Shown piece by piece: positions 35,422 through 61,628 of a stretch of DNA of 64,000 nt. The position numbers and the translations under genes were made by a program. Below the pieces are notes generated by a model that worked only from the letters and a program-made list of their open reading frames with translations, was not told the DNA's origin and did not search any database. Position 1 is the stretch's first letter; the number at the start of each line of letters is the position of its first letter. The DNA is from an uncultured Fibrobacteraceae bacterium (GTDB lineage Bacteria; Krumholzibacteriota; Krumholzibacteriia; LZORAL124-64-63). The stretch is from positions 42,963-106,962 of the forward strand of contig CAZLHO010000003.1 of assembly GCA_964559455.1 (NCBI GenBank), in the 5' to 3' direction.

Positions 35422-36540
35422 ATGTCCAGGCCGGTCCTGCTCCAGCTCACGGGTCTCACCAGCCTCAAGTACGGCGGCATCGAACGCTACCTGTGCGCAG
35501 TGTCCGCGGAATGCAGCCGGCGCGGCTGGAGCACCATCGTCCAGTTCGAAGCCCCGCCCGCTACGGAGAATATCGTCGCCGATTTCACGGCCGCCGGAGC
35601 GCGGCTGGAGTACTTCCCCACGAATCGTAACGGCTGGTCCGCGCGGCGGGGCATCATTTCCTGCCTGCGCCGCCACCGACCGGACATTCTCCACGTCCAT
35701 TTCACGAGCCGAGACAGCCTGCTGCTCACGCCGCGCCTGGCCCGGCTGCTCGGGACGAAGACGTCCGTCTCGACCCTTCACGGATTGGTCCATGATCAGG
35801 CTGGATGGGTCTGGCGGGTCGGCTACCGGGCCTTCGACCACATCGTTCCCGTCAGCGACGCCGTCGCCCGGTCCGCCGAGAGGGGCGGGTTCGGGCGCAA
35901 CCTGCGGCAACCCCTGTATCTGGGGCTCTTCGGCGACCCCGCGCCCGATCCGGCGCGCCGGGCGAGCACGCGGGCGGAGTTCGGCATTCCCGAACAGGCG
36001 CCCGTCGCCGCCTGCATCACCTTCGATGCGCGCATCAAGGGCGTCGACGTCCTGATGAGGGGCTTCGCGCTGCTCCGGGAGTCCGTGCCCGAGGCGAGGC
36101 TTCTCGTCGTGGGAATCGATCCGCGCAATTCTGATCTGCCGCGGATGGCAGACGAACTGGGTGCCGGGGACGGAGTGATCTGGGCGGGAATCCGGGACGA
36201 TGCCTGGCGCCTGTTCGACGCCGCCGACGTCTATGTCCAGCCCTCGCGATCCGAGGGGCTGCCGCTGGCCATCCTGGAGGCGATGGCGCTCGCCCTGCCC
36301 GTCGTGGGCAGCGATGTGGGCGGCATCCCCGAGGCGGTGGTCGATGGGGAGACGGGCCGCCTCGTGCCGGTCGAGGACCCGGTCGCCCTGGCCGACGCCG
36401 TGCAGGGGCTCTTCGCCGACGCCGGTCGAAGACGGGCCTGGGGCGAGGCCGGGCGCCGCCGCTACCAGGACATCTTCAAAGGGCCCGAATCCGTGCGGCG
36501 GCTGGTTTCCGAGTATTACGGCATTCCCGAACTGCAGTAG
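35422..36540 (+). CDS. GT4-family glycosyltransferase
   Basis: C-terminal EGLPLAILEAMA...PVVGSDVGGIPE signature. Confidence 0.85.
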   Translation: MSRPVLLQLTGLTSLKYGGIERYLCAVSAECSRRGWSTIVQFEAPPATENIVADFTAAGARLEYFPTNRNGWSARRGIISCLRRHRPDILHVHFTSRDSLLLTPRLARLLGTKTSVSTLHGLVHDQAGWVWRVGYRAFDHIVPVSDAVARSAERGGFGRNLRQPLYLGLFGDPAPDPARRASTRAEFGIPEQAPVAACITFDARIKGVDVLMRGFALLRESVPEARLLVVGIDPRNSDLPRMADELGAGDGVIWAGIRDDAWRLFDAADVYVQPSRSEGLPLAILEAMALALPVVGSDVGGIPEAVVDGETGRLVPVEDPVALADAVQGLFADAGRRRAWGEAGRRRYQDIFKGPESVRRLVSEYYGIPELQ

Positions 36541-36573
36541 AGAGACGCGACCCGCCCGGCGGCATGGCGCTTC

Positions 36574-37617
36574 CTAGCGGAAGAGGGCCTTGACGCGGCC
36601 CAGGGTCCGGGACTCGGCCGGCACCGGCACGTTGTCGCAGAGGATCTCGAGAGTGAAGGCGCCGTCGCCCTCGAAGTCGCCGCCCTCGGTGGTCAGGGGG
36701 CGGAAGGCGTCCACGCCCAGGTAGAAGACCCCGGCTTCGCCGGTGTCGTTCTCGTAGTCCAGCACCTCGCCGACCCCGGCCAGGCCCCGGTCGACGGCGG
36801 CCACGCAGACGGCGTCGGGGCCGACTCCGGAGAAAAGCCAGAGGGCGCCGTCGAAGACGATCTGGCTCAGCTCGGCGCGGAAGACGGCGGTATCCGGCAG
36901 GGTGACGGCGAACCAGACCTCGCCGCCCTTCTCCAGGTAGTCGGAGCAGCCGGCCGCGGCCGTCAGCAGGTCGGGCCGGTCGAAGATGTTGTCCAGGGCC
37001 GTGGCCCCCTCGACGTTGCAGGCCAGCGGCCGGGCGGCGGCGGCGACGGCGGGGTCCAGCCCCGCGGCGCCGGCGGCCAGGCTCAGCTCGTAGGCGCCCG
37101 CCGCGGCCGTGGCCGGATCCTGGCCCAGCCCGTCGACCACCAGCAGGTAGTCGCCGGCCTCGAGCTCGACGGCGAATTCGGCGTTGGCCCAGGCCACGCA
37201 GGCGTCGCTGTCGCAGTCCGAGAGCAGCAGCACGTCCAGGTCGGGCACCGGGTCCAGCAGCACGTGCAGCCGGGCGGCCTCGGGCAGGTGCAGGCGATAG
37301 AGATCCTCGCCGCCGGCCAGGAACCAGGCGGCGCAGGGGTAGTCCGAGACGCGGTCGGGCGCGGTCGAGGTGTCGCCGCTCCACGTGGTGTCGAATCCGG
37401 CGGTCACGGTGATCAGGGGCGCGGCGGCGCAGTCGATGGGCACGCGCAGCGGCGCGACGGCCGGCTTCGCGGGCAGGACGCGGGCGGGCTCGTCCTTGGG
37501 GAGCGCGACGGGGGGATGAGTGACGGGGACGCCGGCGCCTTGGCCCGGGCCTGCGGCGGCCAGGACCCAGAGGGCGATAGCGAACGGGATCGAGCTGTCT
37601 AAACGAAGGCGGCGCAT
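36574..37617 (-). CDS. Secreted protein with two PPC-like repeats, ending in conserved tail ...VPVPAESRTLGRVKALFR
   Basis: ATG 37617 with RBS gagga. Signal peptide. Internal duplication (SDYPCAAWF... / CSDYLEKGGEVWF...). C-terminal tail shared with the 12732..13271 protein. Confidence 0.65.
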   Translation of the reverse strand: MRRLRLDSSIPFAIALWVLAAAGPGQGAGVPVTHPPVALPKDEPARVLPAKPAVAPLRVPIDCAAAPLITVTAGFDTTWSGDTSTAPDRVSDYPCAAWFLAGGEDLYRLHLPEAARLHVLLDPVPDLDVLLLSDCDSDACVAWANAEFAVELEAGDYLLVVDGLGQDPATAAAGAYELSLAAGAAGLDPAVAAAARPLACNVEGATALDNIFDRPDLLTAAAGCSDYLEKGGEVWFAVTLPDTAVFRAELSQIVFDGALWLFSGVGPDAVCVAAVDRGLAGVGEVLDYENDTGEAGVFYLGVDAFRPLTTEGGDFEGDGAFTLEILCDNVPVPAESRTLGRVKALFR

Positions 37618-37860: not shown

Positions 37861-37902
37861 TAGTCACCTTCGGCGCCTCGAATCCCGAAACAGGAAGCGC
37901 AA

Positions 37903-38331
37903 ATGATCGATAGACTCCTGCGCCAGCCTACCGACAACACCCTGATCCAGCTCTTCCGCTACACCTTCGTCGGCGGTTTCGCCTTCGTGGTGGATTTCGG
38001 CTCCCTCTACGCGCTGACCGAATTCGCCGGCCTCCACTACCTGGTGTCGGCGGCCGTCGCCTTCCTGCTCGGGCTCTGCGTCAACTACCTGCTGAGCGTG
38101 CGCTGGGTCTTCAATTCCCGCACCATGAGCAACCGCTGGCTCGAGTTCGGGCTCTTCGCCCTGGTCGGCGTCGTGGGTCTGGGGCTGAACGAACTGATCA
38201 TCTGGTTCTTCACCGAGAAGGTCGGCCTGCACTACATGGGCTCGAAGGCGGTCTCCGCGATCATCGTCTACCTTTGGAACTTCTTCGCCCGCAAGCGCCT
38301 CCTATTCAGCCGGGAGCAAAACGATTCATGA
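37903..38331 (+). CDS. GtrA-family membrane protein
   Basis: 142 aa, 4 TM, GtrA-like pattern ([16 protein letters not shown]; [22 protein letters not shown]). Confidence 0.85.
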
Positions 38332-39935
38332 AGAAAGCCGTGATCATCGGGGCGGGCCCCGCCGGTCTGACCGCCGCCTGGGAACTGCTCGACCGCACCG
38401 ACGTGAAGCCGGTCGTCTTCGAGGCGACCGGGGCCATCGGCGGCATCTCGCAGACGGTCGAGCACAACGGCAACCGCATGGACATCGGCGGGCACCGTTT
38501 CTTCTCGAAGTCGGACCGCGTCATGGACTGGTGGCGCAACATCATGCCGCTGCAGGGGGCGCCCGCCCGCGACGATCTCGCCCTCGGCCGCGAGGTGCCG
38601 CTCGCGCAATCGACGCGCCAGCGGCCCCTGGGCGACGGCGGCGCGGTCGATGTCCCGGCCCCCGATCCCGAGCGGACCGACAAGGTGATGCTCTACCGCC
38701 AGCGCCTGTCGCGGATCTTCTACCTGCGCAGCTTCTTCAGCTACCCCGTCTCGCTCACGTTGCAGACGATGCGCAACCTGGGCCTGGTCCGGATGGCCCG
38801 CATCGGGATCAGCTACGTCTGGGCGCGGCTGTTCCCGATCCGCGAGGAGAAGTCGCTCGAGGACTTCTTCATCAACCGCTTCGGCCGCGAGCTCTACGCC
38901 ACCTTCTTCAAGGACTACACCGAGAAGGTCTGGGGCGTGCCCTGCGACATCATCAAGCCCGAGTGGGGCGCCCAGCGGATCAAGGGCCTGAGCATCACCA
39001 AGGCCGTCATCCACGCCGTCGGCCAGCTGACCCGCCGCGACCGGTCCATCGACCAGAAGAACATCGAGACCAGCCTGATCGAGCAGTTCCTCTATCCCAA
39101 GCTGGGCCCGGGGCAGATGTGGGAGGAGGTCGCCCGGCAGGTCGCCGGCGGCGGCGGCGAGGTGCACTTGCACAGCGAGGTCAGCGGCCTGATCCTGCGC
39201 GACGGAGCCGTTGTCGGGGTGCGCGTGCGCGACGCGCGGACCGGGCAGACCGTCGATCACGACTGCGACCTGGTCTTCTCCACGATGCCGATCAAGGACC
39301 TGGTCGAGCGCGTCGACGGCGAGGTCCCGGCCGAGGCGCAGGAGGTCGCCGGCGGCCTGATGTACCGAGACTTCATCACGGTCGGGCTGCTGCTGGACAA
39401 GCTGCTGATCAGCAACGAGACCGACCGGCCGACCGTCGGCGGCATCGTCCCCGACAACTGGATCTACATCCAGGAGCGCGACGTCAGGCTGGGGCGCCTG
39501 CAGATCTTCAACAACTGGAGCCCCTACATGGTCGCCGATCCGTCCCAGACCTGGATCGGCATGGAGTATTTCTGCAACGAGGGCGATGATCTGTGGTCGA
39601 TGTCCGACGCCGACTTCGCCGACTTCGCCGTCGCCGAGCTCGCCAAGATCGACATCTGCGATCCGGCGGACGTCCGCGACAGCGTCGTGATCCGGATGCC
39701 CAAGACCTACCCCGCCTATTTCGGCACCTACGACCGCTTCGACGAGCTGCGCCGCTGGGCCGACGGGATCGGGAACCTCTATCTGATCGGCCGCAACGGG
39801 ATGCACCGCTACAACAACCAGGACCACTCCATGCTCACCGCCATGACCGCGGTCGACAACATCCTCGCCGGGCGCCTGGACAAGGCGAACATCTGGGACG
39901 TGAACGCGGAAGAGGAGTACCATGAGCAGAAGTGA
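38328..39935 (+). CDS. FAD/NAD(P)-binding oxidoreductase (amine-oxidase/UDP-galactopyranose-mutase-like)
   Basis: ATGA overlap with gtr[17 protein letters not shown] dinucleotide-binding motif. ~535 aa. Confidence 0.8.
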
Positions 39936-41499
39936 TCGGGACTGGCCGGCGCCGCGGTCCGGCCGCTACGTGCTGCTCTACCTGATCCTCGGCGCGGTCC
40001 TGCTGCCCTTCTTCCGGCACCAGATCAACTCGGACGGCCTGTCCTACATCTCCATCGCGATGCGTTACGCCGCCGGCGACCTGGCCGGAGCGGTCAACGG
40101 CTACTGGGGGCCGCTGCTCTCGTGGCTGATGGTCCCGCTGATCGCCCTGGGGATCGAACCGCTGCTGGCCGGCAAGATCGTCAGCCTGGGCCTGGGCGCC
40201 GCCGCCGCCGCGGGGCTGGTCCGGTTGGCCCGGTTCATGCCCCTGACCGAGAAGCTGCGGTGGATCACGCTGCTCTCGCTGCTGCCCTTCCTGGCGACGG
40301 CCTCGCTGCGCGCGCTCTTCCCCGACCTGCTGGTGGTGGCCCTCATGCTCCACTACCTGGCCTTCGTCTTCGCCGACGGCTACGAGGACCGCCTGCGCAA
40401 CGGCCTGTGGTGCGGACTCCTGGGCGGCCTGCTCTACTACGCCAAGGCCTACGGCTTCTACGTCTTCCTGCTGCACTTCGCCGTGATGGGCCTGCTGCGC
40501 CTGCTGCGCGCGGACGACGGGCGCCGCCGGCTGGCCCTGGTGCGCAACCACGCCCTCGGGCTGGCGGTCTTCGCCGTGCTGGCGGGCGCCTGGATCGGCG
40601 TGCTCAGCGCCCGCTACGGGGAGCCGACGATCAGCACGACCGGCGTCTTCAACCACGCCCTGGCCGGGCCCGCCTCGCGCGGGCAGCCGATGCATTATCT
40701 GGGCTTCCTGCCGCCCCAGGACGAGCGGGCCTTCAGCGCCTGGGAGACGCCCACCACGATCCCCATCGCCGACTGGTCGCTGCGCGATCCCGGCGGCCTG
40801 CGCCACCAGCTCGGGTTGCTGAAGGACAACCTCAAGCTGCTGGGCAGGGACATCACGGCCTATTCCCGCCTGATGGCGCTGATCCTCGTCGGGTCGCTGC
40901 TGCTGTGCGTCCAGCCGCTCCGCCGGCTGCTGCGCGACGGCCCCACGCTCTATCCCCTGGTCACCGTCGCCGTCTTCCCGGCCGGCTACCTGCTGATGCT
41001 GCTCGAGGTCCGCTACGTCTGGATCTGCCCGCTGCTGATCACCCTGATGGGGGCCCGGCTGCTCGGGATGTTCATGGAATCCGGCCTGGGCACCCGCCCT
41101 CGCCGCATCGCCGCGATCGCCCTGTTCGTCGTCTCGGTGATCATCTATCCGGTCAAGCTGATCGTCCAGGGCGTCGGCCAGGGCGAGCGGGTGCGCGCCG
41201 TCGCGGCGACGCTGGCCGACCTGGGGCTGGAGCGCGGCGCGCGCACGGCGTCGAACCGTGAATGGGCCGACTCCCTGTACCTGGCCTACCATCTGGATTC
41301 GCGATATTACGGCGAGCGGGGCGACCTGACCGACGAGCAGGTCGCGGCCGCGCTGCAAGAGTACCGGGTGCGCTACTATCTGGTCTGGGATCCGGAGCCG
41401 GCCGCGGCCGCGCCGCGGGAGGGATGGACCGAGATCACGGCCGGCAGGGTGCCGCGCCTGGCGGTCTACGAGGCGCCCCGGGAAAGCGTGGGACAATGA
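39922..41499 (+). CDS. Polytopic membrane glycosyltransferase (GT-C, ArnT/PMT-like) with C-terminal soluble domain
   Basis: ~11 predicted TM helices. Forms the GtrA/oxidoreductase/GT-C cassette. 14-bp overlap upstream. Confidence 0.7.
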
Positions 41500-42632
41500 A
41501 CGGTAAGGCCCTATTCGTCCGTTTCGGCACCTTTTCCCATACCAATCTCAGCGTTCTGGAGCAGTTGCGGATCAACTTTCCCGACGTCGAGATCGAGGAC
41601 TTCGACCTTCCGTCCGAGATCGGGAAAGGGGTCGGGGATCGATTACTGGCTCTGTGGCGGGTCCTGTTCGAGTACGGCCCGAAAGAACTGTCGAGCCTGA
41701 AGAAGATCCGTCGCGCCCGCTGGACTTCCGCTCCCATGTTCCGCCGTATCCGCGACATGGTGCGGGAAAGGGTCTCGGGATCGGGCGACTACCGCTTCAC
41801 CTTCCAGACCCAGAGCCTCTTCGACGCTTCGGTCCCGGGCATTCCCCATTTCGTCTACACCGACCACACCGTCGCCGTGAACGATCACTATCCGCTACGC
41901 AATCGCCGCCACATCTACTATTCCCGGCGATGGCTGAGGTTGGAGCCGGAGATCTACCGGAACGCAACCGCTGTCTTCACGATGAGCGATCACGTCTCCA
42001 GATCCCTGCGCGATGATTACGGCCTTCCCGCCGGAAGGGCGATCCGGGTCGGGGTGGGGTGCAACGCATTCCGCGACGGCGTGCTGCCCGACCTCGCGGC
42101 GGCCCCGCGGGATCGCTACGAACGCAAGAACATCCTGTTCGTCGGCACCGAATGGGATCTCAAGGGCGGGCCGGAACTTGCCGCGGCTTTCGCGCTCGTG
42201 CTGGAGACCCACCCGGACGCACGCCTGACGGTCGTCGGCGCCTCGCCGGAGCTCGATCTGCCGAACTGCGAAGTCCATGGGGTCGTCCCCTTGGAGAGGG
42301 TGCGGGACTTCTTCAGCGAGGCGACGGTCTTCTGCATGCCCAGCCGCGGCGACGCTTTCGGAATCGTCTTCGTGGAAGCCTTCCTCAGCGGGCTGCCGGT
42401 GGTGGCGCTGAATATCGGGGCGGCTCCCGACATCGTTCGCGATGGAGTGACCGGCCATCTGCTCGACCCCGACGATATCGAGGGTCTTGCACGGAAGCTG
42501 TCCGCGATCCTGGGCGATCCGGAAGGCTGCCGTCGGATGGGCGAGGCGGGACGAAAGCTGGCCGAGGAGTCCTATACGTGGTCCAGAGTCGGCCTGAGGC
42601 TGAAGGAAGAGATCATCAGGCTGATCGGCTGA
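41496..42632 (+). CDS. GT4-family glycosyltransferase
   Basis: ATGA overlap. FGIVFVEAFLSGLPVVALNIGAAPDIV signature. Confidence 0.85.
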   Translation: MNGKALFVRFGTFSHTNLSVLEQLRINFPDVEIEDFDLPSEIGKGVGDRLLALWRVLFEYGPKELSSLKKIRRARWTSAPMFRRIRDMVRERVSGSGDYRFTFQTQSLFDASVPGIPHFVYTDHTVAVNDHYPLRNRRHIYYSRRWLRLEPEIYRNATAVFTMSDHVSRSLRDDYGLPAGRAIRVGVGCNAFRDGVLPDLAAAPRDRYERKNILFVGTEWDLKGGPELAAAFALVLETHPDARLTVVGASPELDLPNCEVHGVVPLERVRDFFSEATVFCMPSRGDAFGIVFVEAFLSGLPVVALNIGAAPDIVRDGVTGHLLDPDDIEGLARKLSAILGDPEGCRRMGEAGRKLAEESYTWSRVGLRLKEEIIRLIG

Positions 42633-49356: not shown

Positions 49357-49370
49357 CCGGGAGGTCAGCC

Positions 49371-50168: not shown

Positions 50169-50182
50169 GCGGGGACGCGACC

Positions 50183-51610: not shown

Positions 51611-51615
51611 TCCCG

Positions 51616-53112
51616 ATGAGGCTCGCCACACAAGGCGGCATCGAGCGGCGGCTCCTGGCTGCCGTTTCTTCTCCCGGCTGGTCCGCCGTCCTGCTCTGCA
51701 TCGTCTTCATCTTCCTGGCCCAGTCCGCGGTCACGAAACTCGGCATGTCCGGGCTGGTGCTGGTCCTGGGCGGCCTGCTGGCCATGACCATCCTGACCGC
51801 CATCTCCCTGCACGATCTCACCATGGCCCTGATGATCTGGATGCTGTCGATGTCGGGCTTCCGATACCTCGGCATGGTCCGGATGCCGGTGCTGCCGGAC
51901 TTCTCGATCGATCGCCTGATGCTCGTGTGGATCATGCTGATGTTCCTGCTGCACTCCGTGGTCGAGAGGCGCAGACTGAAAGGTCCTTTCGGGGCCGACA
52001 TCGTCATGTTGGCTGGAGCCATTCTGGTCCTGTTCCAGGCCCAGCGAGGGGGCTTCACCCATTTCCACGAATGGGTCCTCAGCACCCTGTCGCCGCTCTT
52101 CGCCTACTTCTACGGGAAGAACGTGATCAACAAGGAAAGGGAGATCCGCAACATCATGATCTTCCTGTCCGGCCTGTGCCTGTATTACACGATCCAGGCC
52201 ATCGCCGAACACTTCATGTGGCGGCCCCTGATCTGGCCCAAGACGATCATCGACTACACGACCGGCTTCGTCGCCCCCGGGCGTTCGCGCGGCCCGATGC
52301 TGCACCCGCCCCTGTTCGGGCAGTTGGTGGGGATGGTGGTGATGGTCCAGTTCCTGTTCCTGGTCAAGGCCCGGACCATGCCCGCCCGGCTCGGGATGTT
52401 CGTGCTGCTCGGCGCCGGCCTGCTGGCGCTGTTCTTCTCGTACACCCGCGGCCCCTGGTTGGCCGCCGGCGTGGCCCTGGTGCTCCTGACCGTCCTGCGG
52501 CCAGGTTTCCGCCGCGTGACGATGGTGCTGGGCGTGGTCCTGTTCATCGGCGCGCTTTTCGGCGCACTCCAGATGGCTAACACCGAATTCTTCCAGGACC
52601 GGATGAACTCGCAGAACACGGTGGAAAACCGGCTCGGGATCTTTGCGAACACCCTGCGCATCATCCGGGACCATCCTTTCCTGGGCATCGGCTACTTCGA
52701 GTGGCAGAACGTGGTCGGCCTCTACAACCAGGCGGTCTACGTACCCCTCTACGGCTTCGTGAAGAAGTCGCTCGGGGCCGGCATGCCCATCCACGACATC
52801 TATCTCGGCCGGCTGGCGGAGGAGGGCATCTTCAGCTCGATCCTCCAGTTCACGTTCTACTTCATGGTCCTCAGGGCGTGGCTCCGCAAGTGGCGCCTGG
52901 ATCCCCGGGGGGATTGGTTCAACCGGGATACCCTGGCCGTCATGGCTGCGACCATGGTCTGCTATCTGGTCGGCGGCATGGTCATCGACTACCGCTACTT
53001 CGATCTCGTCAACGTCATCTTCTACTTCTTCGCCGGCATCATTTGCGGCTATTCGCCTCGAATCGCAAACAACGCTCTCGCTGAGGGCCGCGCCATGACG
53101 GCGCGTTCCTGA
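51616..53112 (+). CDS. O-antigen-ligase/Wzy-like polysaccharide polymerase
   Basis: ~11 TM helices. Wzy_C-type SYTRGPWLAAG motif. Confidence 0.75.
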   Translation: MRLATQGGIERRLLAAVSSPGWSAVLLCIVFIFLAQSAVTKLGMSGLVLVLGGLLAMTILTAISLHDLTMALMIWMLSMSGFRYLGMVRMPVLPDFSIDRLMLVWIMLMFLLHSVVERRRLKGPFGADIVMLAGAILVLFQAQRGGFTHFHEWVLSTLSPLFAYFYGKNVINKEREIRNIMIFLSGLCLYYTIQAIAEHFMWRPLIWPKTIIDYTTGFVAPGRSRGPMLHPPLFGQLVGMVVMVQFLFLVKARTMPARLGMFVLLGAGLLALFFSYTRGPWLAAGVALVLLTVLRPGFRRVTMVLGVVLFIGALFGALQMANTEFFQDRMNSQNTVENRLGIFANTLRIIRDHPFLGIGYFEWQNVVGLYNQAVYVPLYGFVKKSLGAGMPIHDIYLGRLAEEGIFSSILQFTFYFMVLRAWLRKWRLDPRGDWFNRDTLAVMAATMVCYLVGGMVIDYRYFDLVNVIFYFFAGIICGYSPRIANNALAEGRAMTARS

Positions 53113-53121
53113 GGGGGCGGC

Positions 53122-54690
53122 GTGAAGCTCGGGGATCTCAGACGCCAGTTGTTCGAGGGGGAAGTCCTGCGCCTGATGGGCATCACCCTGGTGACCAAGC
53201 CCATCGGCCTGGCGGTGCAGATGCTCATCGCCGGGATCTTCGGCGCCGGCTACAGCTACGACGCCTACGCCTTCTCCCTGTTCCTGGTCGGCCTCGTCGA
53301 CACTCCGCTGGCCTGCATCTACGATTCGGCCATCATCCCCCTGATCGCCAACCTGCGTCGGGAGTTGCCTCGCGACAAGCTGCTCGCGGTGCAGAACGCC
53401 ACCCTGCTGCTCTTCCTGGCGCCCGGTACCCTCTATGCCCTGTTGATGATCTTCCGTCCGGAAATCGTCATCGATGTCATCGGCGGCCGGCTGCCGCCGG
53501 AAACCAGGGCCTACGTCCTGCAGATGGTGCGGGTGATGGCGGTGCCTTCGCTGGTGATGCAGGCGGTGGCGATGCTCAAGTCCCTGCTGAACCTCTCGCG
53601 CCGGTTCCGGGTGCCGGCCGTGATGCCGCTGCTGAACAGCGTGACGATGCTGGTCGCGGTCCTGGCCGCCTACAAACCGCTGGGGATCTGGGCGCTGCCG
53701 CTCGGCTTCGTCGTCTCCTACATGATCCAATTGATTGCCACTTCGGTCTTCGCCGTGGGTTCCGGCACCCTGTCGCCGGTCAGGCCGAGGCTGCCGGCCG
53801 GCATGCTCGCGCGCATCTGGCGCCAGGGCCGGCTGCTGATCCTCTCGCAGGGCATGCTGATGGTGAATCTGTCGGTCGACCGGTTCTTCGCCGCGATGCT
53901 GGTCGCGGGCAGCATCTCCGCCGTCACCTACTCCTCGACGATCATGAACCTGGGCTGCCAGATGATCGGCTACAGCCTGGGCGTGGTGATGTTCACCCGC
54001 ATGGCCGAACTCTTCGCCGCCAGGGACTACCGGGTCTGCGGCGACTATATCCTCGTGAATCTGAGCCGCCTCATGCGCATCATCATGCCCGTCTGCCTGG
54101 CCCTGGTCCTGTCCGGCCCGGAGGTGGTGCGGGTCCTGTTCCAGCGCGGCGCCTTCGACGCCGAGGCGGCGGTCCGCACTTCGGGCGTCCTGGCGATGTA
54201 CCTGATCGGGATGCCGGCCACCCTGCTCAACCTGATCGTCGCGCGGGCCTTGAACGCGATGCAGAAGTATCGCGACAAGCTGTGGCTCGATGGGCAATAC
54301 ATGCTCACCAACATCATCGGCAACGCCATTCTGGTCCGCTACCTGGCGGTTAAGGGTCTGGCCATTTCCTCCGCCTTCGCGATCACCCTGCACGTGTCCC
54401 TGTCGCTCCTGGTGATGCATCGCTACCGGACAGGCATGGCCACCGGGGCCATCGGCCGCGTCGTGTTCCGCTCGTACTTGCTGGCTGCGGCAGCCTATGC
54501 GGTCTATTCACTCAGCGGTTTCGGCCGCTTCGTCGACAGCCTCGACCTGCTGCCGACCGTGCCGGGCGCCATCGGATCGGCGCTGCTGCGATTCGCTTTC
54601 GTGGCCGGCGTCTACTACCTGATGGATGTCGGCGCCGTCCTGTGGCGGCGCCGGAACCGCCGGCGGAGGGCGGAGGTGGGGACATCGTGA
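53122..54690 (+). CDS. MOP-superfamily flippase (MurJ/Wzx-like polysaccharide biosynthesis protein)
   Basis: GTG start with RBS gaggggg. 522 aa, ~14 TM. Confidence 0.8.
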   Translation: MKLGDLRRQLFEGEVLRLMGITLVTKPIGLAVQMLIAGIFGAGYSYDAYAFSLFLVGLVDTPLACIYDSAIIPLIANLRRELPRDKLLAVQNATLLLFLAPGTLYALLMIFRPEIVIDVIGGRLPPETRAYVLQMVRVMAVPSLVMQAVAMLKSLLNLSRRFRVPAVMPLLNSVTMLVAVLAAYKPLGIWALPLGFVVSYMIQLIATSVFAVGSGTLSPVRPRLPAGMLARIWRQGRLLILSQGMLMVNLSVDRFFAAMLVAGSISAVTYSSTIMNLGCQMIGYSLGVVMFTRMAELFAARDYRVCGDYILVNLSRLMRIIMPVCLALVLSGPEVVRVLFQRGAFDAEAAVRTSGVLAMYLIGMPATLLNLIVARALNAMQKYRDKLWLDGQYMLTNIIGNAILVRYLAVKGLAISSAFAITLHVSLSLLVMHRYRTGMATGAIGRVVFRSYLLAAAAYAVYSLSGFGRFVDSLDLLPTVPGAIGSALLRFAFVAGVYYLMDVGAVLWRRRNRRRRAEVGTS

Positions 54691-55715
54691 TCGTCCACGA
54701 ACTCGATCCCCTGCGCGATCCCCGCTGGCCGCGGTTCCTCGACCGGCAGGCCGCGGCGTCGATCTTCCACGGCCGGGGCTGGCTGACGGCGCTGCGCCGC
54801 AGCTACGGTTTCGAGCCCGTCGTCCTGACGACGACGCCGGCGGGACGCGAGCTCGACGACGGGATCGCGCTCTGCCGCGTGAACAGCCGCCTGACCGGTC
54901 GCCGGCTGGTCTCGCTGCCGTTTTCGGACCACTGCCAGCCGCTGTGCCAAGATGCCGGTGCCGCGGCCGCGCTGGCCGCCGGCCTGACGGCCATGGTCGA
55001 CGGCGGCGGCTGGCGGCGCTGCGAGCTGCGGCCCCTGGAGCCGGTCCCCTTCCCGGCGTCCCTGGCGCCCGGCGAGACCTTCCGCTTCCACGCGCTCGAC
55101 CTGACGCCGGACGAGGACGCGCTCTGGTCGGGCTTGCACAAGACGGCCGTCCGTCAGATGATCGGCCGCGGCGAGCGGGAGGATCTCCAGGTGAGCGCGG
55201 GCCGCGACGCCCGGCATATCGACCTCTTCTACGAGCTGCTGCTCAAGACCCGCCGCAAGCATCGGTTGCCGCCGCAGCCGCGGAGCTGGTTCCGGAACCT
55301 GGCCGCCTGCCTCGGCGACGCGGTCGGCTTCCGCGTGGCGCTGAAGGACGAACGCCCGGTGGCGGCGATCGTCACGACCCGGTATCGGGACGTCGTCACG
55401 CACAAGTACGGCTGTTCCGACGCGGCCTTCAGCGGCCTGGGCGGCACCCAGCTGCTGCTGTGGCGGGCCATGCTCGAGGGTCGGGCCGAGGGCGCCCGGG
55501 TCTTCGACATGGGCCGCAGCGATCCGGAGAACGAAGGGCTCGTCCGCTTCAAACGCCGCTGGGGCGCCGCGGAGCGGGAGATCGTCTACCTGGGCTACCC
55601 GGCGGCGGAATCCGGCGGCGGTCGCTTGACCGGCCTGGCCGGCGCCGTCTTCGCCCGCCTGCCCGATCCGTTGCTGGAGGCTGCCGGCAGGCTGCTGTAC
55701 CGACACGTCGGCTGA
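54687..55715 (+). CDS. FemAB-like/GNAT (CelD/BioF2-like) acyltransferase-fold protein
   Basis: GTG start with AGGTGG RBS, GTGA overlap with upstream stop. ~340 aa Acetyltransf_6/FemAB-like pattern. Confidence 0.65.
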
Positions 55716-55725
55716 GGAGAGGACC

Positions 55726-56220
55726 ATGGCCTACACGCGCGACGCCCGGCCCTTGAGCGCCGGTGACCGCCTCTGGATGCTGCGCAAGCGCCTGGCCAAG
55801 ATCGGCGGCCGCTTCTGGCCCATGCTGGGGATGCGTCTGCGCTGCCTGCGCGGCGCCGGCTACGTCATCGGCCGCGAGGTCTATATCGGCGAGGACTTCA
55901 TGGTGACCGACCTTCTCGAGGACCGGAGCCCCTCGCTGTTCGTGGGCGACCGCGTGGCGATCGCCCAGCGCGTGACGATCGTCACCGCGTCGGACCCGAA
56001 CTGGTCGCGTCTCTACCCCCATGTGCGCATCGAACGGGCGCCGGTGCGCATCGAGGACGACGCCTGGATCGGCGCCGGCGTCATCATCCTGCCGGGCGTG
56101 ACCGTCGGCGCGGGCGCGATCGTCGCCGCCGGAGCCGTCGTGAATCGCGACGTGCCGCCGTTGACCGTGGTCGGCGGAGTGCCCGCCCGCACCATCAAGA
56201 AGCTGGACGTGGAACTGTGA
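55726..56220 (+). CDS. Hexapeptide-repeat (LbH) sugar O-acetyltransferase
   Basis: [25 protein letters not shown] hexapeptide repeats. Confidence 0.85.
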
Positions 56221-57413
56221 GCGACAAGCGACGCATCGCGATGGTGGCCTACACCTTCTTCGCGCCGGACGCCAGGGTCCGCCGCCACGTCAAGGCCCTG
56301 CTCGAGGCCGGCTACGCCGTCGACGTCTTCTGCCTGCGCAATCCCGACGGGGACGGCGTGCCGCCCACGCCCGGGCTCGAATTCTTCTATCCCCGCTTCC
56401 GACGCTACGACAAGACCAGCCAGCTGAACGTCGTGACGGAGTACCTGCTCTTCGCCCTGATCTGCGGGGCGCGCCTGCTGCGGCATCAGCTGGGCGGTCG
56501 CCGCTACGCCCTGGTCCACGTCAACAACATGCCGAATTTCCTGGTCTTCGCGGCCTTGCCCCTGCGCCTGTTCGGCGTGCCCGTGCTGCTGGACATCCAC
56601 GACACGATGCCCGAGATCTACCAGGACCGCTTCGCCGTCGGCCCCGGGCATCCCGTGATCCGGATGCTGCGGCTCGAGGAGCGGCTGTCGATGGCGGCGG
56701 CCGGATTCGTGATGACCACGGAGCACACCAAGTGGGAGCGGCTGTTGCGGAACGGCCTGCGGCGCGGGAAGTCGGCCGTGACCCTGAACCTGCCCGACGC
56801 CGACCTCTTCCCCGACCTGCCGGTGCCCGCAGCGCCGCCGGCGGGCGACGGCTTCCGGCTGATCTACCACGGGACCTTCGCCCGACGCCTGGGCCTGGAC
56901 CTGGCCGTCCGGGCCGTGGCCCGGGTCCGCGACCGGATCCCCGGCCTGCGCTTCGACATCATCGGCGACGGCGAGCAGCGCTCCGAGCTCGAGGCCCTGG
57001 TCGCCGAGCTGGACGTCGCCGACGTGGTGCGCCTGAGCCCGGGCTTCGTGCCCACCTGCGATCTGCCCGCCATGGTGCGCGGGGCGGACCTGGCGCTGAT
57101 CCCCTCGCGCAACACGATCGGCACGAGCCTGATGCTGCCGACCAAGATGCTGGAATACGTCTGCATGGGAATCCCCTGCCTGACCGTGCCCACGCCGACG
57201 ATCACGCACTACTTCGACGAGCGGGCGGCGTATTTCGTGCCGACCGAGGACGTCGCGGCCATCGCCGACGGGATCGTCCGGCTTCACGCCGACCCGGAAC
57301 GGCGGCTGGCCCTGGCCCGGTCCGCCAAGCGTTTCTTCGCCGACCACGATTTCGCCGCGGAGCGCAGGCGCTACCTGGACTGCGTGGCGCGGATGTCGGG
57401 AGGAGAGTCGTGA
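56217..57413 (+). CDS. GT4-family glycosyltransferase
   Basis: GTGA overlap. [23 protein letters not shown] motif. Confidence 0.85.
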
Positions 57414-58750
57414 GCGTCGCCAGCCTGCACGAACGCTTCCGCATCGCCGGGGAGCCGCGCCTGGACAGCGCCGGGCCGGGGCACGGCGACGCCGGCTTCT
57501 TCGCCTTCGGCCCGGACGCCCTGGGCTTCGGGCGCCTTTCCGGACTCAGCCCCGCGTCGCGGGCGGACGCGCCGTTGCCCGACGCCTTGAGCCGCGTCGA
57601 ACTGTCCCCCGACGGCTGCCGCCTGCCCTTCGATCTCGACGAGGTCGTCGAGGCCCTGCGCCGCGAGCGGCACGCCGGCAGCGCCGGCGAGACCCAGGTC
57701 GCCGCGGGCCGGCGCTCGTTGCTGCGCACGCTCTACTATGCGGTTCGTCCCCTTTTGCCGGTGGACGTGCGCAAGCATCTGCAGCGCGTCTTTCTCTCGG
57801 GTTGGCGGCGGATCCCGTTCCCGGCCTGGCCCGTCGACGCCAGCGTCGACCTGATCCTGGAGCGTGCGCTCGAGTTGGCGATCAAGGCGTCGGGTGAGGG
57901 TTCCGTTCCCTTCATCTGGTTCTGGCCCGAGGGCCGCAGCGGCTGCCTGACCCTGACCCACGACGTCGAGACGGCCGACGGCCTGGCCGCCTGCCCCGAC
58001 ATGATGAACCGCGACGCCGCGCGGGGCTTCCGGGCCTCCTACCAGCTGGTGCCCGAGAAGTATCCGGTGGAGTTCGGCCACCTGGACGCTTTCCGGCAGG
58101 GCGGCTGCGAGATCAACGTCCACGGCCTGAGCCACGACGGGCTGCTCTTCCGCGACCGCGCGACGTTCCGCGAGCGGGTCGGCGCCATGCGCGGCTACGC
58201 CGAGCGCTGGGGGGCGCGCGGTTTCCGGTCCCCGGTGCTGTACCGCAACCTCGAATGGTTCGACGAACTGCCCTTCGACTACGACATGTCGGTGCCGAAC
58301 ACCGCCCGCCTGGATCCGCAGCGGGGAGGCTGCTGCACGGTCTTTCCCTACTTCGTGGGGAACGTCCTCGAGATCCCGTTGACGACGACCCAGGACTACT
58401 CCCTGATCCACGTCCTGGGCCGCGGCGACGCCGGGCTTTGGCGCGATCAGACGGAACGGATCCTGGCGCGCCACGGTCTGATCAGCGTGAATACCCATCC
58501 CGACTATCTCGCCGACAAGGCCGGCCGCGCGATCTACGCCGAGCTCCTGGACCTGCTCGCCCACCTGCGGGACGAGCGGAACCTCTGGGCGGCCCTGCCC
58601 GGGGAGATCGAGGCCTGGTGGCGGCGGCGCGCTGCGATGAGGCCCGTGCGCCGGGACGGCGAATGGGCGATCGAGGGGCCCCGGGACGAGCGCGCCCGCG
58701 TGGCCCTGGCCCGCAGCGGTACGCACGGTCTGGAGTTCGAGATCGTCTAG
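57410..58750 (+). CDS. Polysaccharide-deacetylase-like (CE4-related) protein
   Basis: GTG start with GGGAGGAGAG RBS, overlapping the upstream stop. LTLTHDVE and NVHGLSHD motifs. Assignment tentative. Confidence 0.55.
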   Translation: MSVASLHERFRIAGEPRLDSAGPGHGDAGFFAFGPDALGFGRLSGLSPASRADAPLPDALSRVELSPDGCRLPFDLDEVVEALRRERHAGSAGETQVAAGRRSLLRTLYYAVRPLLPVDVRKHLQRVFLSGWRRIPFPAWPVDASVDLILERALELAIKASGEGSVPFIWFWPEGRSGCLTLTHDVETADGLAACPDMMNRDAARGFRASYQLVPEKYPVEFGHLDAFRQGGCEINVHGLSHDGLLFRDRATFRERVGAMRGYAERWGARGFRSPVLYRNLEWFDELPFDYDMSVPNTARLDPQRGGCCTVFPYFVGNVLEIPLTTTQDYSLIHVLGRGDAGLWRDQTERILARHGLISVNTHPDYLADKAGRAIYAELLDLLAHLRDERNLWAALPGEIEAWWRRRAAMRPVRRDGEWAIEGPRDERARVALARSGTHGLEFEIV

Positions 58751-58862
58751 CCTCAGCGGTGCGGCGTCCTCGTTGTTGCCCGGAGCCCGCCGCTCGGCTA
58801 GATTCTGTTGCGCGACCATCGGCGCCGGACATCGACGGCGGGCCCCTTCGATTCGAGGAAGC

Positions 58863-60434
58863 ATGTACCTGGAACACTTCGGACTCTCGGCATCGCCGTT
58901 CATGCTCGGGCCCGAGACCCGCTTCGCCTATTCATCCACCGCCTACGGCGAGACGATGGCGCACCTCCTCTACGGATTGGAGGGCGGCGAGGAGATCGTC
59001 CTGATCACCGGGGAGATCGGCACCGGCAAGACGCTGGCCCTGCACTGCCTGATCGAGAACCTCAATCCCCTCTACCGGATCGCGTTCATCAACGTCACGG
59101 ACCTGAACTTCAACGAGTTCCTGAAGCTCGTTCTCGCGGAGCTCGATCTCGAGATCGCCGGCGGCGCCGACCGCGCCGATCTGCTGACAGCCCTGCGCCG
59201 GGAACTGGTGGCCAGCCGATCGCGCGCGGCAAAGATCCTGCTGATCGTCGACGAAGCCCAGAACCTCGAGATGCAGATTCTCGAGGATCTCAGGATGCTG
59301 ACGAACCTCGCCCAGCCCGGCGCCCAGGCCCTGCAGATCGTGTTCTCGGGGCAACCTTCGCTGGCCGCGAAAATCGACCATCCGGAGCTGGCCCAGCTCA
59401 AGCAGCGCATCAGGGTGCGCTATGAACTGGAGCCGCTTTCCCGCGACGAGATCGCGGACTACATCACCCACCGCATGCAGGTGGCGGGCGCCAGCTTGGA
59501 TCCCTTCGCGCGCTCGGCCGTCGACCGCATCTTTGTCCTGAGCGGCGGGATCCCGCGGCTGGTGAACTTCCTGGCCGACGGCGCCCTGCTCTCGGCCTTC
59601 GTCTCCGGCAGGAGCAAGGTGACCGCCGAGGATGTCGAGGACCGCGACCTCGCCCGCGCCTCTGCGGCGGCCCGGGTGTCCATCTCGCCGCCCTCGCCGG
59701 CGACGGAATCGCTCCCGGGCGGCAAGAGCGTCGAACCAGCGGGCCCGCCGCCGGAACCCGAGCCGGAGCCCGACCCGGAGCCCGACCCGGAACCCGAGCC
59801 CGAACGATCCGTCCCCCTGGCCGTGCGCCGCCCCCGTCGGGGAGGGGCCGGACGCGTCCTGGGCGTGGCGGCCGCGATCCTGGTCCTGGCCGCGGCGGCC
59901 TGGTTCTTCCGCGCCGGACTGGCCGACCTCTACGCGGGCCTGCGCGGGTCCGGGCCGGCGCCCGTCGCCGTCCAGCCGGTCCCGGACATCCCCAGCGACG
60001 TCGTGCCCGACGACGCACTCGACGAGGAGAGGGACGCCGCTGTCGACACGGCCGTCGCCGACGATACCGAGACCGACACGTCGGCGCCGACCGTCGTCCC
60101 GGCCGGGAACGAGGCCGAACCCGCCGCCGAATCCATCGCCGCGACACCCGAAGAGACCCCGCCGGCGGCGACCGCCGCCGCGCCCGCGCCCCTGGCGCCG
60201 GGCTTCTACATCCATGTCGGCTCGTTCCTGGATCCGGTCCGGGCCGAGGCCTACCGGCTGCGGCTGGAGGGCTCCGGCCACCCCACCGTCGTGCGCGACC
60301 GGAGCTTCGACGGCAGCCTCTGGCACCGGGTCTACGTGGGCCCCTTCGTCGACCTCGGCGCCGCCCGCGAGGCCGAGCTCGTCCTGAAGCGCGAGCACGC
60401 GATCACCTACACGATGATCCACGAGATCGGATGA
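58863..60434 (+). CDS. ExeA/GspA-like AAA ATPase fused to Pro/Glu-repeat linker, TM segment and C-terminal SPOR domain
   Basis: Walker A GEIGTGKT. Walker B LLIVDEAQ. (PEPEPEPDPEPDPEPEPE) linker. TM VLGVAAAILVLAAAAWFF. C-terminal FYIHVGSFLDP...WHRVYVGPF SPOR-like domain. Confidence 0.8.
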   Translation: MYLEHFGLSASPFMLGPETRFAYSSTAYGETMAHLLYGLEGGEEIVLITGEIGTGKTLALHCLIENLNPLYRIAFINVTDLNFNEFLKLVLAELDLEIAGGADRADLLTALRRELVASRSRAAKILLIVDEAQNLEMQILEDLRMLTNLAQPGAQALQIVFSGQPSLAAKIDHPELAQLKQRIRVRYELEPLSRDEIADYITHRMQVAGASLDPFARSAVDRIFVLSGGIPRLVNFLADGALLSAFVSGRSKVTAEDVEDRDLARASAAARVSISPPSPATESLPGGKSVEPAGPPPEPEPEPDPEPDPEPEPERSVPLAVRRPRRGGAGRVLGVAAAILVLAAAAWFFRAGLADLYAGLRGSGPAPVAVQPVPDIPSDVVPDDALDEERDAAVDTAVADDTETDTSAPTVVPAGNEAEPAAESIAATPEETPPAATAAAPAPLAPGFYIHVGSFLDPVRAEAYRLRLEGSGHPTVVRDRSFDGSLWHRVYVGPFVDLGAAREAELVLKREHAITYTMIHEIG

Positions 60435-60437
60435 GGC

Positions 60438-61628
60438 ATGGGGACTGCTGACGGGACATCCTCCCTGCGCGTCGCCCAGCTGATCGAGACCCTGGACATG
60501 GGCGGCGCCGAGCGCCTGGCGGTCCAGATCGCGAACGCCCGCGCCGCGGCGGGCGACGCCTCGCACCTCTACGTCCTGACCGATCCGGGCCCTCTCTCCG
60601 CCGCCATCGCTCCCGAGGTGCGCGTGCGCTACTTCGGCTATCGCCGGGTGCCGATCGGTCGGCCCTGGGCCTTTCTGGTCTCGCTGCGCCGCGGCTGGCG
60701 GCTGCTTTCGGAGCAGGCGGCCCGCGACGGGATCGCGATCATCCAGACCCACCTGCCGGCGGCAAACTTCTGGGGTCTGCTCCTGCAATGGCGGGGACGC
60801 TGCGCCGCGGTCCCCACCGTGCACAACAACCGGGAGTTCGACTACGGCGAGGCCGACGCCCCGCTGCGCCGCCGCCTGCGTCGACGCGCCTACGCCGAGA
60901 TGCTGCGCCGCTGCCCCGCAATCGTCGCGGTCAGCGAACGGGTGCGCGCCTCGCTGCTGACCGAGCTGGGCGCGGCCGACCCCGGTCCCGAACGCCTGCT
61001 GTCGGTGCCCAACGGCGTGCCCGAACCGCCGCCGCGCGACGACGCCTACCGCGCCGCCGTGCGCGAGCGCCACGGCGTCGGCGCCGACGAGTCCCTGGTC
61101 CTGGCCGCGGGCCGGCACTGCGAGCAGAAGGATTTCCGCACCCTGGTCGAGGCCGCCGCCCGGCTGCGCGATCGCGGCGTGTCCTGCCGGGTGCTGATCG
61201 CCGGCGACGGCCCGCTGCGCGCCGACCTGCGCCGGCGCGCGCGGCGCCTGGGTCTCGAGAGCGTCGTGCTTTTTCCCGGCAACGTGGACGACCTGGGCGA
61301 CCTGATGCAGGCCGCGGACATCTTCGTGCTCTCCTCGCTCTGGGAGGGCCTGCCCCTGGTCCTGCTCGAGGCCATGGCGGCCGCCCTGCCCGTGGTCGGC
61401 ACCCGCATCGACGGCATCGGCGAGATCCTGCGCGACGGCGAGACCGGTCGCCTGGTCTCGCCCGCCGATCCGGAGGTCATGGCCGACGCCGTCGCCGAGC
61501 TGCTGGCCGACCCTCAGCGGCGACGGGCCCTCGGCGAGGGGGGACGCGACCTGGTGCGGGAACGCTTTTCCTTCGCCCGCGTCGACCGCGACCTGGCGGC
61601 GCTGTACCATCGCATCGCCGGCGTCTGA
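60438..61628 (+). CDS. GT4-family glycosyltransferase
   Basis: WEGLPLVLLEAMAAALPVVGTRIDGIGE signature. Confidence 0.85.
   Translation: MGTADGTSSLRVAQLIETLDMGGAERLAVQIANARAAAGDASHLYVLTDPGPLSAAIAPEVRVRYFGYRRVPIGRPWAFLVSLRRGWRLLSEQAARDGIAIIQTHLPAANFWGLLLQWRGRCAAVPTVHNNREFDYGEADAPLRRRLRRRAYAEMLRRCPAIVAVSERVRASLLTELGAADPGPERLLSVPNGVPEPPPRDDAYRAAVRERHGVGADESLVLAAGRHCEQKDFRTLVEAAARLRDRGVSCRVLIAGDGPLRADLRRRARRLGLESVVLFPGNVDDLGDLMQAADIFVLSSLWEGLPLVLLEAMAAALPVVGTRIDGIGEILRDGETGRLVSPADPEVMADAVAELLADPQRRRALGEGGRDLVRERFSFARVDRDLAALYHRIAGV

Follow-up and report, generated by a model that had tools for sequence, protein, structure and literature searches.

A co-directional export operon with a kinase-like protein

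We analyzed a 64-kb stretch of DNA (the window) from contig CAZLHO010000003.1 of an uncultured bacterium (GCA_964559455.1) with a tentative affiliation to the Krumholzibacteriota (FCB group), in which positions 35422 to 61628 hold a surface-polysaccharide locus that includes a kinase-like protein among its export genes. A sequence-only reading had likened this locus to the exopolysaccharide (EPS) gene sets that accompany exosortases and PEP-CTERM proteins. As the G+C content of the window is about 70%, shadow open reading frames (ORFs) crowd the raw ORF lists. The genes were called from the G+C content at third codon positions (GC3 frame analysis) across the window, and the resulting map is consistent with how genes were called on three public assemblies that contain this DNA. 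By coordinate mapping, the longest public scaffold with the locus (ENA MUDA16-1 scaffold_5, 146,638 bases) stops at about position 29590 of the window, and the window thus stems from a different assembly of this organism. Pfam scans covered 53 GC3-supported window genes, the five genes at 27185-33453 were compared with NCBIfam only, MqnC was outside the Pfam scan, and the right flank was judged from the Pfam matches on record for the 6.4 kb past the right end of the window.

The locus contains 21 genes (g01 to g21). Genes g11 to g21 (48643-61628) form a co-directional 13-kb operon, the junctions of which overlap or span at most 15 bases; only the gap before g20 is longer, at 113 bases. The neighboring gene to the right, at 61674-62528, belongs to PF02621 (MqnA/MqnD family) and is followed by MqnC, and the locus therefore ends where it had been thought to end. 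The region that holds the conserved export core, from the kinase-like gene to the flippase gene (48000-54000), has a G+C content of 63-64%, as opposed to about 70% in the rest of the window. By eye, a near-consensus candidate promoter of the sigma-70 type (TTGACA, 17 bases, TATCAT) was seen on the plus strand at 48370-48398, where g10 has its stop codon. The kinase-like gene follows about 250 bases farther downstream, and no other intergenic gap of the plus-strand block is of appreciable size.

The first gene of the operon, g11 (48643-49356, plus strand), encodes a stand-alone homolog of bacterial tyrosine kinases (BY-kinases). In a HMMER search against the PDB, S. aureus CapB was the best match (3bfv, E 1.5e-9), followed by VpsO, Wzc, Etk, and BceF. 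The sequence VKGEGAS, which had been noticed in place of a P-loop, is present in this protein, and realignment to CapB revealed no intact Walker A motif, as GEGAS lies on GAGKS with an alanine at the catalytic Lys55. In Walker A', IDANFR lies on VDGDMR, which leaves a DxN with asparagine in place of the second aspartate, and the Walker B aspartate is kept (VIDGPP on IIDTPP). The ring-forming EX2RX2R motif of BY-kinases is not conserved in the g11 family. The last 22 residues (NVLGSVLNRRVYDIPDFIYSRL) contain two tyrosines and no tyrosine cluster, and Y234 alone is nearly invariant in the family.

A homolog search yielded 132 sequences, mostly from metagenome-assembled genomes (MAGs) labeled Krumholzibacteria, about 115 of which are full-length (about 237 residues). 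The Walker A lysine was found in none of the approximately 115 full-length members checked, the position being taken by A, S, T, N, C, G, or V, and E70, G71, S73, D95, N97, and D169 are invariant. A compensating 'shifted lysine', for which the lysine of VKGEGAS at the position of the MinD signature lysine came into question, was rejected because this residue is S, A, R, H, or Q in the homologs. The kinase-dead forms of CapB and Wzc in the octamer structures 2ved and 7nhr are lysine-to-methionine mutants (2ved as judged from its sequence), and the kinase-dead form of Wzc is K540M (PMC12004946). We conclude that g11 is a BY pseudokinase, predicted to be unable to phosphorylate, whose losses are shared by the whole family. 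The previous suspicion that the protein is catalytically inactive was thus substantiated, as the loss of the lysine survived realignment and is conserved.

In a profile search of 1.84 billion representatives, the g11 clade stood out as a discrete group above about 190 bits, after which the scores dropped to about 140 bits. Among the other representatives, the top 137 that could be scored comprised 126 without the lysine, and 102 of the 137 combined the missing lysine with a DxN and an intact Walker B aspartate; 115 of those without the lysine were stand-alone proteins, and 18 were fused to a polysaccharide co-polymerase (PCP). The ranking of these 137 representatives is biased, as the profile was made from sequences that lack the lysine. 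This bias notwithstanding, BY-kinase homologs without the lysine are clearly common, as judged from these sequences. Ten homologs were scanned with the NCBIfam models, and several of them passed the cut-off of the 'tyrosine autokinase' domain model TIGR01007 (108 bits), whereas none passed TIGR03018. As the homologs at or above the TIGR01007 cut-off include lysine-less ones (P0136, P0139, P0142, P0148, and P0161), automatic annotation overstates kinase activity.

The pseudokinase gene is followed by the genes of an export machinery. The product of g12 (49371-50168, plus strand) is a polysaccharide export lipoprotein of the outer membrane polysaccharide export (OPX) type with 265 residues, a lipobox (LSGC), a Poly_export domain (PF02563, 48 bits, cut-off 28), and SLBB domains (PF22461 and PF10531). 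Its former designation as 'Wza' holds for an OPX lipoprotein that has Poly_export and SLBB as its only recognized domains and no Pfam Wza_C match. We also observed that g12 and its orthologs share a conserved segment of about 39 residues past the SLBB region (...LFWDIYAI.NLDK.DR..R). The combination of Poly_export and SLBB is the class-3 architecture as defined previously (PMC9603273). On the basis of its domains, g12 would be assigned to class 3, and the conserved 39-residue segment leaves class 1 also possible.

The gene g13 (50183-51610, plus strand) encodes a PCP-2-type co-polymerase of 475 residues that has no kinase domain and matches TIGR03017 (E 5e-23) and TIGR03007 (E 1e-13). Residues 24-466 align to positions 4-443 of the 444-position TIGR03017 model. 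Two transmembrane helices (35-53 and 423-441) are followed by a cytoplasmic tail of about 34 residues, and this tail is conserved in the orthologs from related loci (DHRIY...L.VPVLG.IS). In fused proteins of the Wzc type, the tail after the second transmembrane helix runs into the kinase domain, and in CapA it docks on CapB.

Further downstream on the plus strand, g14 (51616-53112) encodes a Wzy_C-family polymerase or ligase (PF04932, 54 bits, cut-off 31.7) with eight hydrophobic segments; polymerases and ligases of this family are not separable by sequence alone. It is followed by g15 (53122-54690), which encodes a MOP flippase of the MurJ/MviN family (PF03023, 155 bits, cut-off 27; TIGR01695, 172 bits, cut-off 236). 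Close to the end of the operon, g20 (58863-60434, plus strand) encodes an ExeA/GspA-like ATPase with an AAA_22 domain (PF13401, 78 bits), a single transmembrane helix (331-349), and a C-terminal periplasmic SPOR domain (PF05036, 31 bits). Scans of the window genes revealed no tyrosine phosphatase of the low-molecular-weight (LMW-PTP) or PHP type. A MOP flippase, a Wzy_C protein, a PCP with two transmembrane helices, and an OPX lipoprotein, all of them above-cut-off or full-length matches, are therefore the components of a Wzx/Wzy pathway in one operon, and together with the dead BY-kinase homolog they bear out the earlier proposal of a Wzx/Wzy-dependent EPS pathway with a pseudokinase.

For comparison, we used 46 close loci that came from a scan of one genome per species with the pseudokinase as query, which is hence present in 46 of 46. 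They stem from MAGs titled Krumholzibacteriia/Krumholzibacteriota, 'uncultured Fibrobacteraceae', Latescibacterota, or Gemmatimonadales. When the window proteins were compared with these loci by tblastn, matches were found for OPX in 42, PCP in 36, Wzy_C in 35, the terminal glycosyltransferase g21 in 25, the AAA and SPOR ATPase in at least 23, the secreted protein g02 in 22, and the MurJ-family flippase in 13 loci. The core of pseudokinase, OPX, PCP, and Wzy_C is thus present in 35-42 of the 46 loci, often followed by the ATPase and a GT4 glycosyltransferase, and it often adjoins mqnA/mqnC. The pairing of pseudokinase and PCP, whose gene lies two genes 3' of g11, is kept in 36 loci. The remaining glycosyltransferases were found in fewer loci, the AsnB-like protein g07 and the cassette of GtrA, oxidoreductase, and g05 in two loci each, and the FemAB-like, hexapeptide acetyltransferase, and CE4-like genes in none of the 46. 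This is the usual picture of conserved export genes beside sugar-specific ones that vary.

We consider it probable that the locus serves the Wzx/Wzy-dependent production of a secreted or capsular heteropolysaccharide, in which the BY pseudokinase is the partner of the PCP and works as a scaffold. The same genes could in principle belong to a lipopolysaccharide O-antigen locus, in which Wzy_C would polymerize the O-antigen or ligate it in the manner of WaaL, the PCP would regulate chain length as Wzz does, and serotypes would vary with the set of glycosyltransferases. PF04932 spans O-antigen ligases as well as polymerases, a conserved chromosomal place beside mqnA/mqnC with a variable glycosyltransferase block is reminiscent of O-antigen loci, and the locus has no priming transferase, as is the case in WecA-dependent enterobacterial loci. 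However, O-antigen exits the cell via Lpt, and an OPX together with a PCP that has a BY-kinase-like partner is a hallmark of capsule and EPS export. The PCP itself, with its 475 residues, is best described by the EPS-type models EpsF and PCP-2 and not by Wzz (PF02706, 21 bits, below the cut-off of 25.5), and we therefore regard an O-antigen locus as very unlikely.

Sugar-specific genes, secreted proteins, and neighboring genes

Pfam and NCBIfam matches, and in the case of the deacetylase the fold, confirmed all the families that had been listed for the locus by eye, except that the label 'GT-C' for the protein at 39922-41499 could not be confirmed. Seven GT4/GT1 glycosyltransferases are encoded. 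The GT4 genes on the plus strand include g01 (35422-36540; PF00534, 122 bits, and PF13439), g06 (41496-42632; PF00534, 94 bits), g10 (47206-48372; PF13439, 91 bits, and PF00534, 68 bits), and g18 (56217-57413; PF13692, 73 bits, and PF00534, 71 bits). On the minus strand, g08 (44643-45833) encodes a GT1/GT4-like enzyme (PF13524 and PF13692, about 30 bits; TuaH-like, E 5e-18) and g09 (45820-47046) a GT4 enzyme (PF00534, 112 bits; NF041876 EpsE, 192 bits, cut-off 400). The seventh, the GT4 enzyme g21 (60438-61628, plus strand), is the conserved last gene of the operon.

Between g01 and g06, three plus-strand genes form a cassette. The first, g03 (37903-38331), encodes a GtrA-family membrane protein (PF04138, 92 bits), and g04 (38328-39935) encodes an NAD(P)/FAD-dependent oxidoreductase that exceeds the cut-off of NF005546 (868 bits, cut-off 418) and also matches PF01593 and PF13450. 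The third gene, g05 (39922-41499), encodes a polytopic membrane protein with nine hydrophobic segments that had no match in Pfam, NCBIfam, or the PDB, also when a profile of three sequences was used. Its single-sequence AlphaFold model, with a predicted local distance difference test (pLDDT) value of 45, was unusable for a structure search. In the related loci L024 and L047, g05 co-occurs with g03 and g04.

The putative tailoring enzymes are in part encoded within the operon. The product of g16 (54687-55715, plus strand) is a FemAB-like protein of the GNAT fold (PF13480, 57 bits), and g17 (55726-56220, plus strand) encodes a left-handed beta-helix (LbH, hexapeptide) acetyltransferase (PF00132, 46 bits) with WcaF- and Maa-like matches. 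The asparagine-synthase-like (AsnB-like) protein g07 (42645-44540, minus strand) matches its families weakly (PF00733, 44 bits; PF13537, 37 bits), and its scores with TIGR01536 (85 bits), TIGR03104 (84 bits), and TIGR03108 (78 bits) are all far below the cut-offs. This protein starts with MAGILG, as opposed to MCGI in N-terminal nucleophile amidotransferases, and there is no in-frame upstream cysteine, which means that g07 lacks the N-terminal cysteine nucleophile of the glutaminase. Beside the pseudokinase, it would be the second apparently 'dead' catalytic site in the locus.

The protein encoded by g19 (57410-58750, plus strand) had no match in Pfam, NCBIfam, or the PDB sequences. It belongs to a family with more than 6,400 homologs (about 50% identity) in Hydrogenedentota, Acidobacteriota, and other groups; the members are annotated as 'hypothetical', and neither Pfam nor NCBIfam has a model for them. 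An AlphaFold model with 36 homologs as input reached a pLDDT of 89.6 and a predicted TM score of 0.91, and Foldseek found 43 matches in the PDB with E<=1e-3, nearly all of them CE4 enzymes (3rxz, 1.3e-9; ArnD 8t0j, 7e-8). As the model matches CE4 deacetylases including ArnD, the designation 'deacetylase-like' holds at the level of the predicted fold. CE4 enzymes have TFDD, H[ST]xxH, and RxPY as their catalytic and metal-binding motifs; within the g19 family itself, the residues H184-D185, H242-D243, and R273...Y278 are invariant. In two family members, P0328 and P0345, the protein is joined to a formyltransferase domain (PF00551), a combination reminiscent of ArnA/ArnD chemistry.

The locus also encodes a secreted protein, g02 (36574-37617, minus strand), with two PPC-like domains and the C-terminal tail ...TLGRVKALFR. 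The window copy matches no Pfam or NCBIfam family, and six of 11 homologs weakly match PF04151 (PPC). A word-index search with g02 found only a near-identical copy, and the sole match of the g02-family profile in the PDB, a designed PPR protein, was dismissed as spurious. Homologs of g02 are encoded divergently 5' of the pseudokinase gene in 22 of the 46 loci, often immediately adjacent, and at an overall identity of 31-42% almost every one has [ST][WFL]G.[IVLM][KR].[LMF][FY]R as its C-terminus. It had been suggested that two secreted proteins with such tails could be surface cargo or accessory factors of the locus. For g02, the synteny makes a role as accessory factor or cargo of the operon plausible; the second protein, at 12732-13376, is encoded 22 kb away and shows no visible link to the locus.

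Similar tails are present on three unrelated secreted proteins, encoded on the minus strand at 12732-13376 (TTWGGVKELFR) and 36574-37617 (RTLGRVKALFR) of the window and at 1842-2561 of the related locus L014 (GSWSSIKAAYR). The tail matched no NCBIfam model, a literature search found nothing relevant, and the pattern [ST][WFL]G.[IVLM][KR].[LMF][FY]R-COOH may represent a C-terminal tag that is peculiar to this lineage and has yet to be described. As it has no transmembrane segment, it is not a signal of the PEP-CTERM type. It appears unlikely to us that Krumholzibacteriota-like bacteria use the tail as a new, non-exosortase signal for the sorting or anchoring of proteins, with a functional coupling to the export operon. 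If it were true, the tagged proteins would be handled by the machine of pseudokinase, PCP, and OPX or by another enzyme, or the polymer would be attached to them in this way, and the locus would be a functional analog, not a homolog, of the pairing of PEP-CTERM/exosortase and EPS.

In a related scenario, which we consider highly improbable, the operon would glycosylate and display surface proteins, with Wzy_C as an O-oligosaccharyltransferase for proteins with the tail ...G.[IV][KR].[LM][FY]R and the PPC-domain protein as the first of them. Such a function would parallel the link that has been proposed between PEP-CTERM proteins and EPS, and TIGR03097, a 'putative O-glycosylation ligase', is indeed the one NCBIfam model that Wzy_C matches. 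The synteny of the tailed PPC protein, the conservation of its tail at low overall identity, and the occurrence of the tail on two unrelated secreted proteins also fit this scenario. However, TIGR03097 scores only 39 bits against a cut-off of 188, and the single Wzy_C gene is needed as the polymerase of a PCP/OPX pathway. The tail has neither a transmembrane segment nor a known processing enzyme, and nothing points to glycosylation.

Directly 5' of g01 and divergent from it, two class I S-adenosylmethionine (SAM) methyltransferases are encoded at 33502-35234 on the minus strand (NF045667-like matches below the cut-off). They may extend the locus by sugar O-methylation and are not kept in the related loci. 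Farther to the left, the A and B subunits of DNA topoisomerase VI are encoded on the minus strand at 28779-30083 and 31681-33453, the B subunit with 684 bits against NF003218. Topoisomerase VI is typical of archaea and uncommon in bacteria. The gene between them resembles an M32 carboxypeptidase by eye. At the left end of the window (1-5816), a set of Rnf complex genes was found (RnfB, A, E, G, D, and C by Pfam), followed by a gene whose product is rich in cysteine and histidine, contains CxxCH repeatedly, and looks like a multiheme cytochrome by eye.

Relation to exosortase systems

The similarity to the EPS loci of exosortase A (XrtA) systems, which had led to the view of this locus as an exosortase-type gene set without an exosortase, is weak. 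XrtA-associated NCBIfam models were the best match for the kinase-like protein, OPX, Wzy_C, the FemAB-like protein, the ATPase, and four glycosyltransferases, and in the case of the PCP and the amidotransferase they ranked second or third. Yet every score amounts to only 10-67% of the curated cut-off. The scores were 218 bits for TIGR03015 (cut-off 324.5), 60 for TIGR03018 (231), 126 for TIGR03019 (260), 69 for TIGR03027 (180), 50 for TIGR03007 (279), 39 for TIGR03097 (188), 78 for TIGR03108 (817), and for TIGR03088 at most 162 bits, reached by g21, with 114 bits for g01 (409). The TIGRFAM scan that the sequence-only reading had itself proposed thus went against its exosortase framing, as TIGR03006 matched none of the locus proteins and the other models stayed below their cut-offs.

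As these matches raise the question of whether a true exosortase (XrtA-like)/PEP-CTERM system has its polysaccharide arm in this locus and its exosortase, cargo, and regulators elsewhere in the genome, the further components of such systems are of interest. A sigma-54 response regulator, a histidine kinase, and a tetratricopeptide repeat (TPR) protein encoded at 19970-24535 recall the PrsR/PrsK/PrsT regulators. However, the response regulator reached 365 bits with TIGR02915 (PrsR; cut-off 503) and scored higher with AtoC and NtrC, the kinase reached 83 bits with TIGR02916 (cut-off 300), and the TPR protein reached 74 bits with TIGR02917 (cut-off 312). An identity of the three proteins as PrsK/PrsR/PrsT was rejected, the scores being generic. 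Matches to a sigma-54 promoter pattern were fewer than expected by chance, and none was found 5' of the operon.

In agreement with the earlier reading, no exosortase and no PEP-CTERM-type tail was found in the window. More specifically, PF09721 was absent from the scanned genes of the window and from the matches on record in the 6.4-kb right flank. In the 46 related loci and their 10-kb flanks, all polytopic ORFs of at least 220 residues were assigned to Wzy_C, MurJ/Wzx flippases, g05 homologs, or MBOAT, and no exosortase was among them. A regular expression for PEP-CTERM-type tails, which is a heuristic and not the TIGR02595 model, gave a single, spurious match among the ORFs of the window and 66 loci. 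Among the papers listed in a literature search, none combined Krumholzibacteriota with exosortase.

Only EpsH is exclusive to genomes with PEP-CTERM proteins, and the accessory EPS families occur elsewhere too (Haft et al., 2006; PMC1569441). As the scores are below the cut-offs and the accessory families are also found in genomes without PEP-CTERM, the likeness reflects distantly related EPS machinery and not membership in an exosortase system. The view of an exosortase-type locus minus its exosortase was therefore rejected, on the grounds of these scores and of the lack of exosortase and PEP-CTERM proteins in the window, the right flank, and the 46 loci. The missing exosortase is not an anomaly, and nothing ties the locus to an exosortase system. 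To the possibility that the remainder of such a system is encoded elsewhere in this genome, we ascribe a low probability. For the original question of an exosortase, the value of the analysis is mostly negative.

Pseudokinase and co-polymerase in comparison with known systems

The preferred explanation, a Wzx/Wzy-dependent pathway with a scaffolding pseudokinase, can be put in terms of a working model. By homology, up to seven GT4/GT1 enzymes would assemble the repeat units on a lipid carrier, and the units are probably tailored by the LbH acetyltransferase and the FemAB-like, AsnB-like, and CE4-like enzymes. The MurJ-family flippase would flip the units, Wzy_C would polymerize them under the control of the PCP, and the polymer would exit via the OPX lipoprotein. 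The conservation of the cytoplasmic g13 tail leads us to predict that g11 most likely binds there as a scaffold, as the CapA tail binds CapB. From this position, g11 would set the oligomeric state of the PCP without a phosphorylation cycle, as has been proposed for EcpK/EpsV and HfsB/HfsA. The lack of a phosphatase gene fits such a phosphorylation-independent scaffold model. By analogy with ExeA/GspA, the AAA and SPOR protein g20 may help the export apparatus to cross the peptidoglycan.

Several points weigh against this explanation. As the EX2RX2R motif is not conserved, oligomerization of g11 cannot be assumed. The invariant glycines and serine of the P-loop and the invariant Walker B aspartate suggest that nucleotide binding may persist; it is possible that the g11 family has retained it, and a model in which the protein is a scaffold only may then be incomplete. 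We saw no gene for an outer-membrane beta-barrel partner of g12, which is an OPX protein without a recognizable Wza_C helix. No initiating phosphoglycosyl transferase (PF02397 or PF00953) was found among the window genes or in the 6.4-kb right flank, although its gene may lie elsewhere in the genome.

If the explanation is correct, a candidate phylum without cultured representatives joins the phosphorylation-independent PCP-2 proteins, a subfamily proposed recently in which a BY pseudokinase stands in for the cycle of tyrosine phosphorylation. The locus also documents a type of pseudokinase whose losses are confined to the Walker A lysine, the second aspartate of Walker A', and the tyrosine cluster, with the rest of the nucleotide pocket invariant. 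This raises the question of whether the PCP cycle is driven by nucleotide binding in the absence of phosphotransfer.

Known systems resemble individual parts of the locus to different degrees. ExeA (GspA) of Aeromonas and Vibrio has the architecture of a cytoplasmic AAA ATPase with one transmembrane helix and a periplasmic peptidoglycan-binding domain, and in this respect g20 is similar to it. In g20, however, the periplasmic domain is SPOR (PF05036) and not PF01471, and by analogy its partner would be a polysaccharide exporter and not the secretin of a type II secretion system. The EPS loci of XrtA/PEP-CTERM systems (Haft et al., 2006) also bring together an ExeA-like ATPase, a BY-kinase-like protein, OPX, PCP, and ligase-like, FemAB-like, amidotransferase-like, and deacetylase-fold proteins; they differ by the exosortase, PEP-CTERM, and PrsK/R/T proteins that were not found here, and with respect to their models all scores of the present locus are below the cut-offs, with no match at all for TIGR03006.

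S. aureus CapA/CapB (3bfv, 2ved) is a split system as well, in which the activator is a membrane protein whose cytoplasmic C-terminal tail is short and the P-loop protein is separate. CapB, however, is an active autokinase with GAGKS, DGD, EX2RX2R, and a tyrosine cluster, in contrast to g11 with GEGAS, DAN, no EX2RX2R, and one conserved tyrosine. In Caulobacter crescentus, HfsA (PCP-2) and HfsB (pseudokinase) constitute a kinase-less PCP-2 with a stand-alone pseudokinase in a Wzx/Wzy pathway, according to the summary in PMC12004946. The holdfast system belongs to another phylum and makes another product, and the similarity of g11 to HfsB is one of description. To our knowledge, the holdfast locus contains neither an AAA and SPOR protein nor a protein with PPC domains and the tail described above.

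The EPS system of Myxococcus xanthus is likewise similar in several features, as it combines a Wzx/Wzy pathway, the kinase-less PCP EpsV, and the stand-alone BY-kinase homolog EcpK, which has neither catalytic residues nor a tyrosine-rich tail (PMC12004946). It shares with the present locus also a short OPX protein of Poly_export and SLBB only, which in M. xanthus is of class 3, and the lack of a phosphatase (PMC12004946, PMC9603273). There are differences in that EcpK has lost all three Walker motifs, whereas g11 keeps the GxG-S loop and the Walker B aspartate, and in that the M. xanthus genes are in separate clusters, whereas the genes of g11 and the PCP are parted by the OPX gene only. A beta-barrel partner was not found here, and the likeness between g11 and EcpK is, again, one of description. 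For EcpK/EpsV, genetic, proteomic, and two-hybrid evidence has been published (PMC12004946). With EcpK/EpsV and HfsB/HfsA, the pairing of a BY pseudokinase with a PCP-2 that lacks the kinase domain has thus been published (PMC12004946), and the inactivity of g11 is not an anomaly. In this sense, the locus is a fairly ordinary surface-polysaccharide locus, and the concept of the pseudokinase is one that has already been published.

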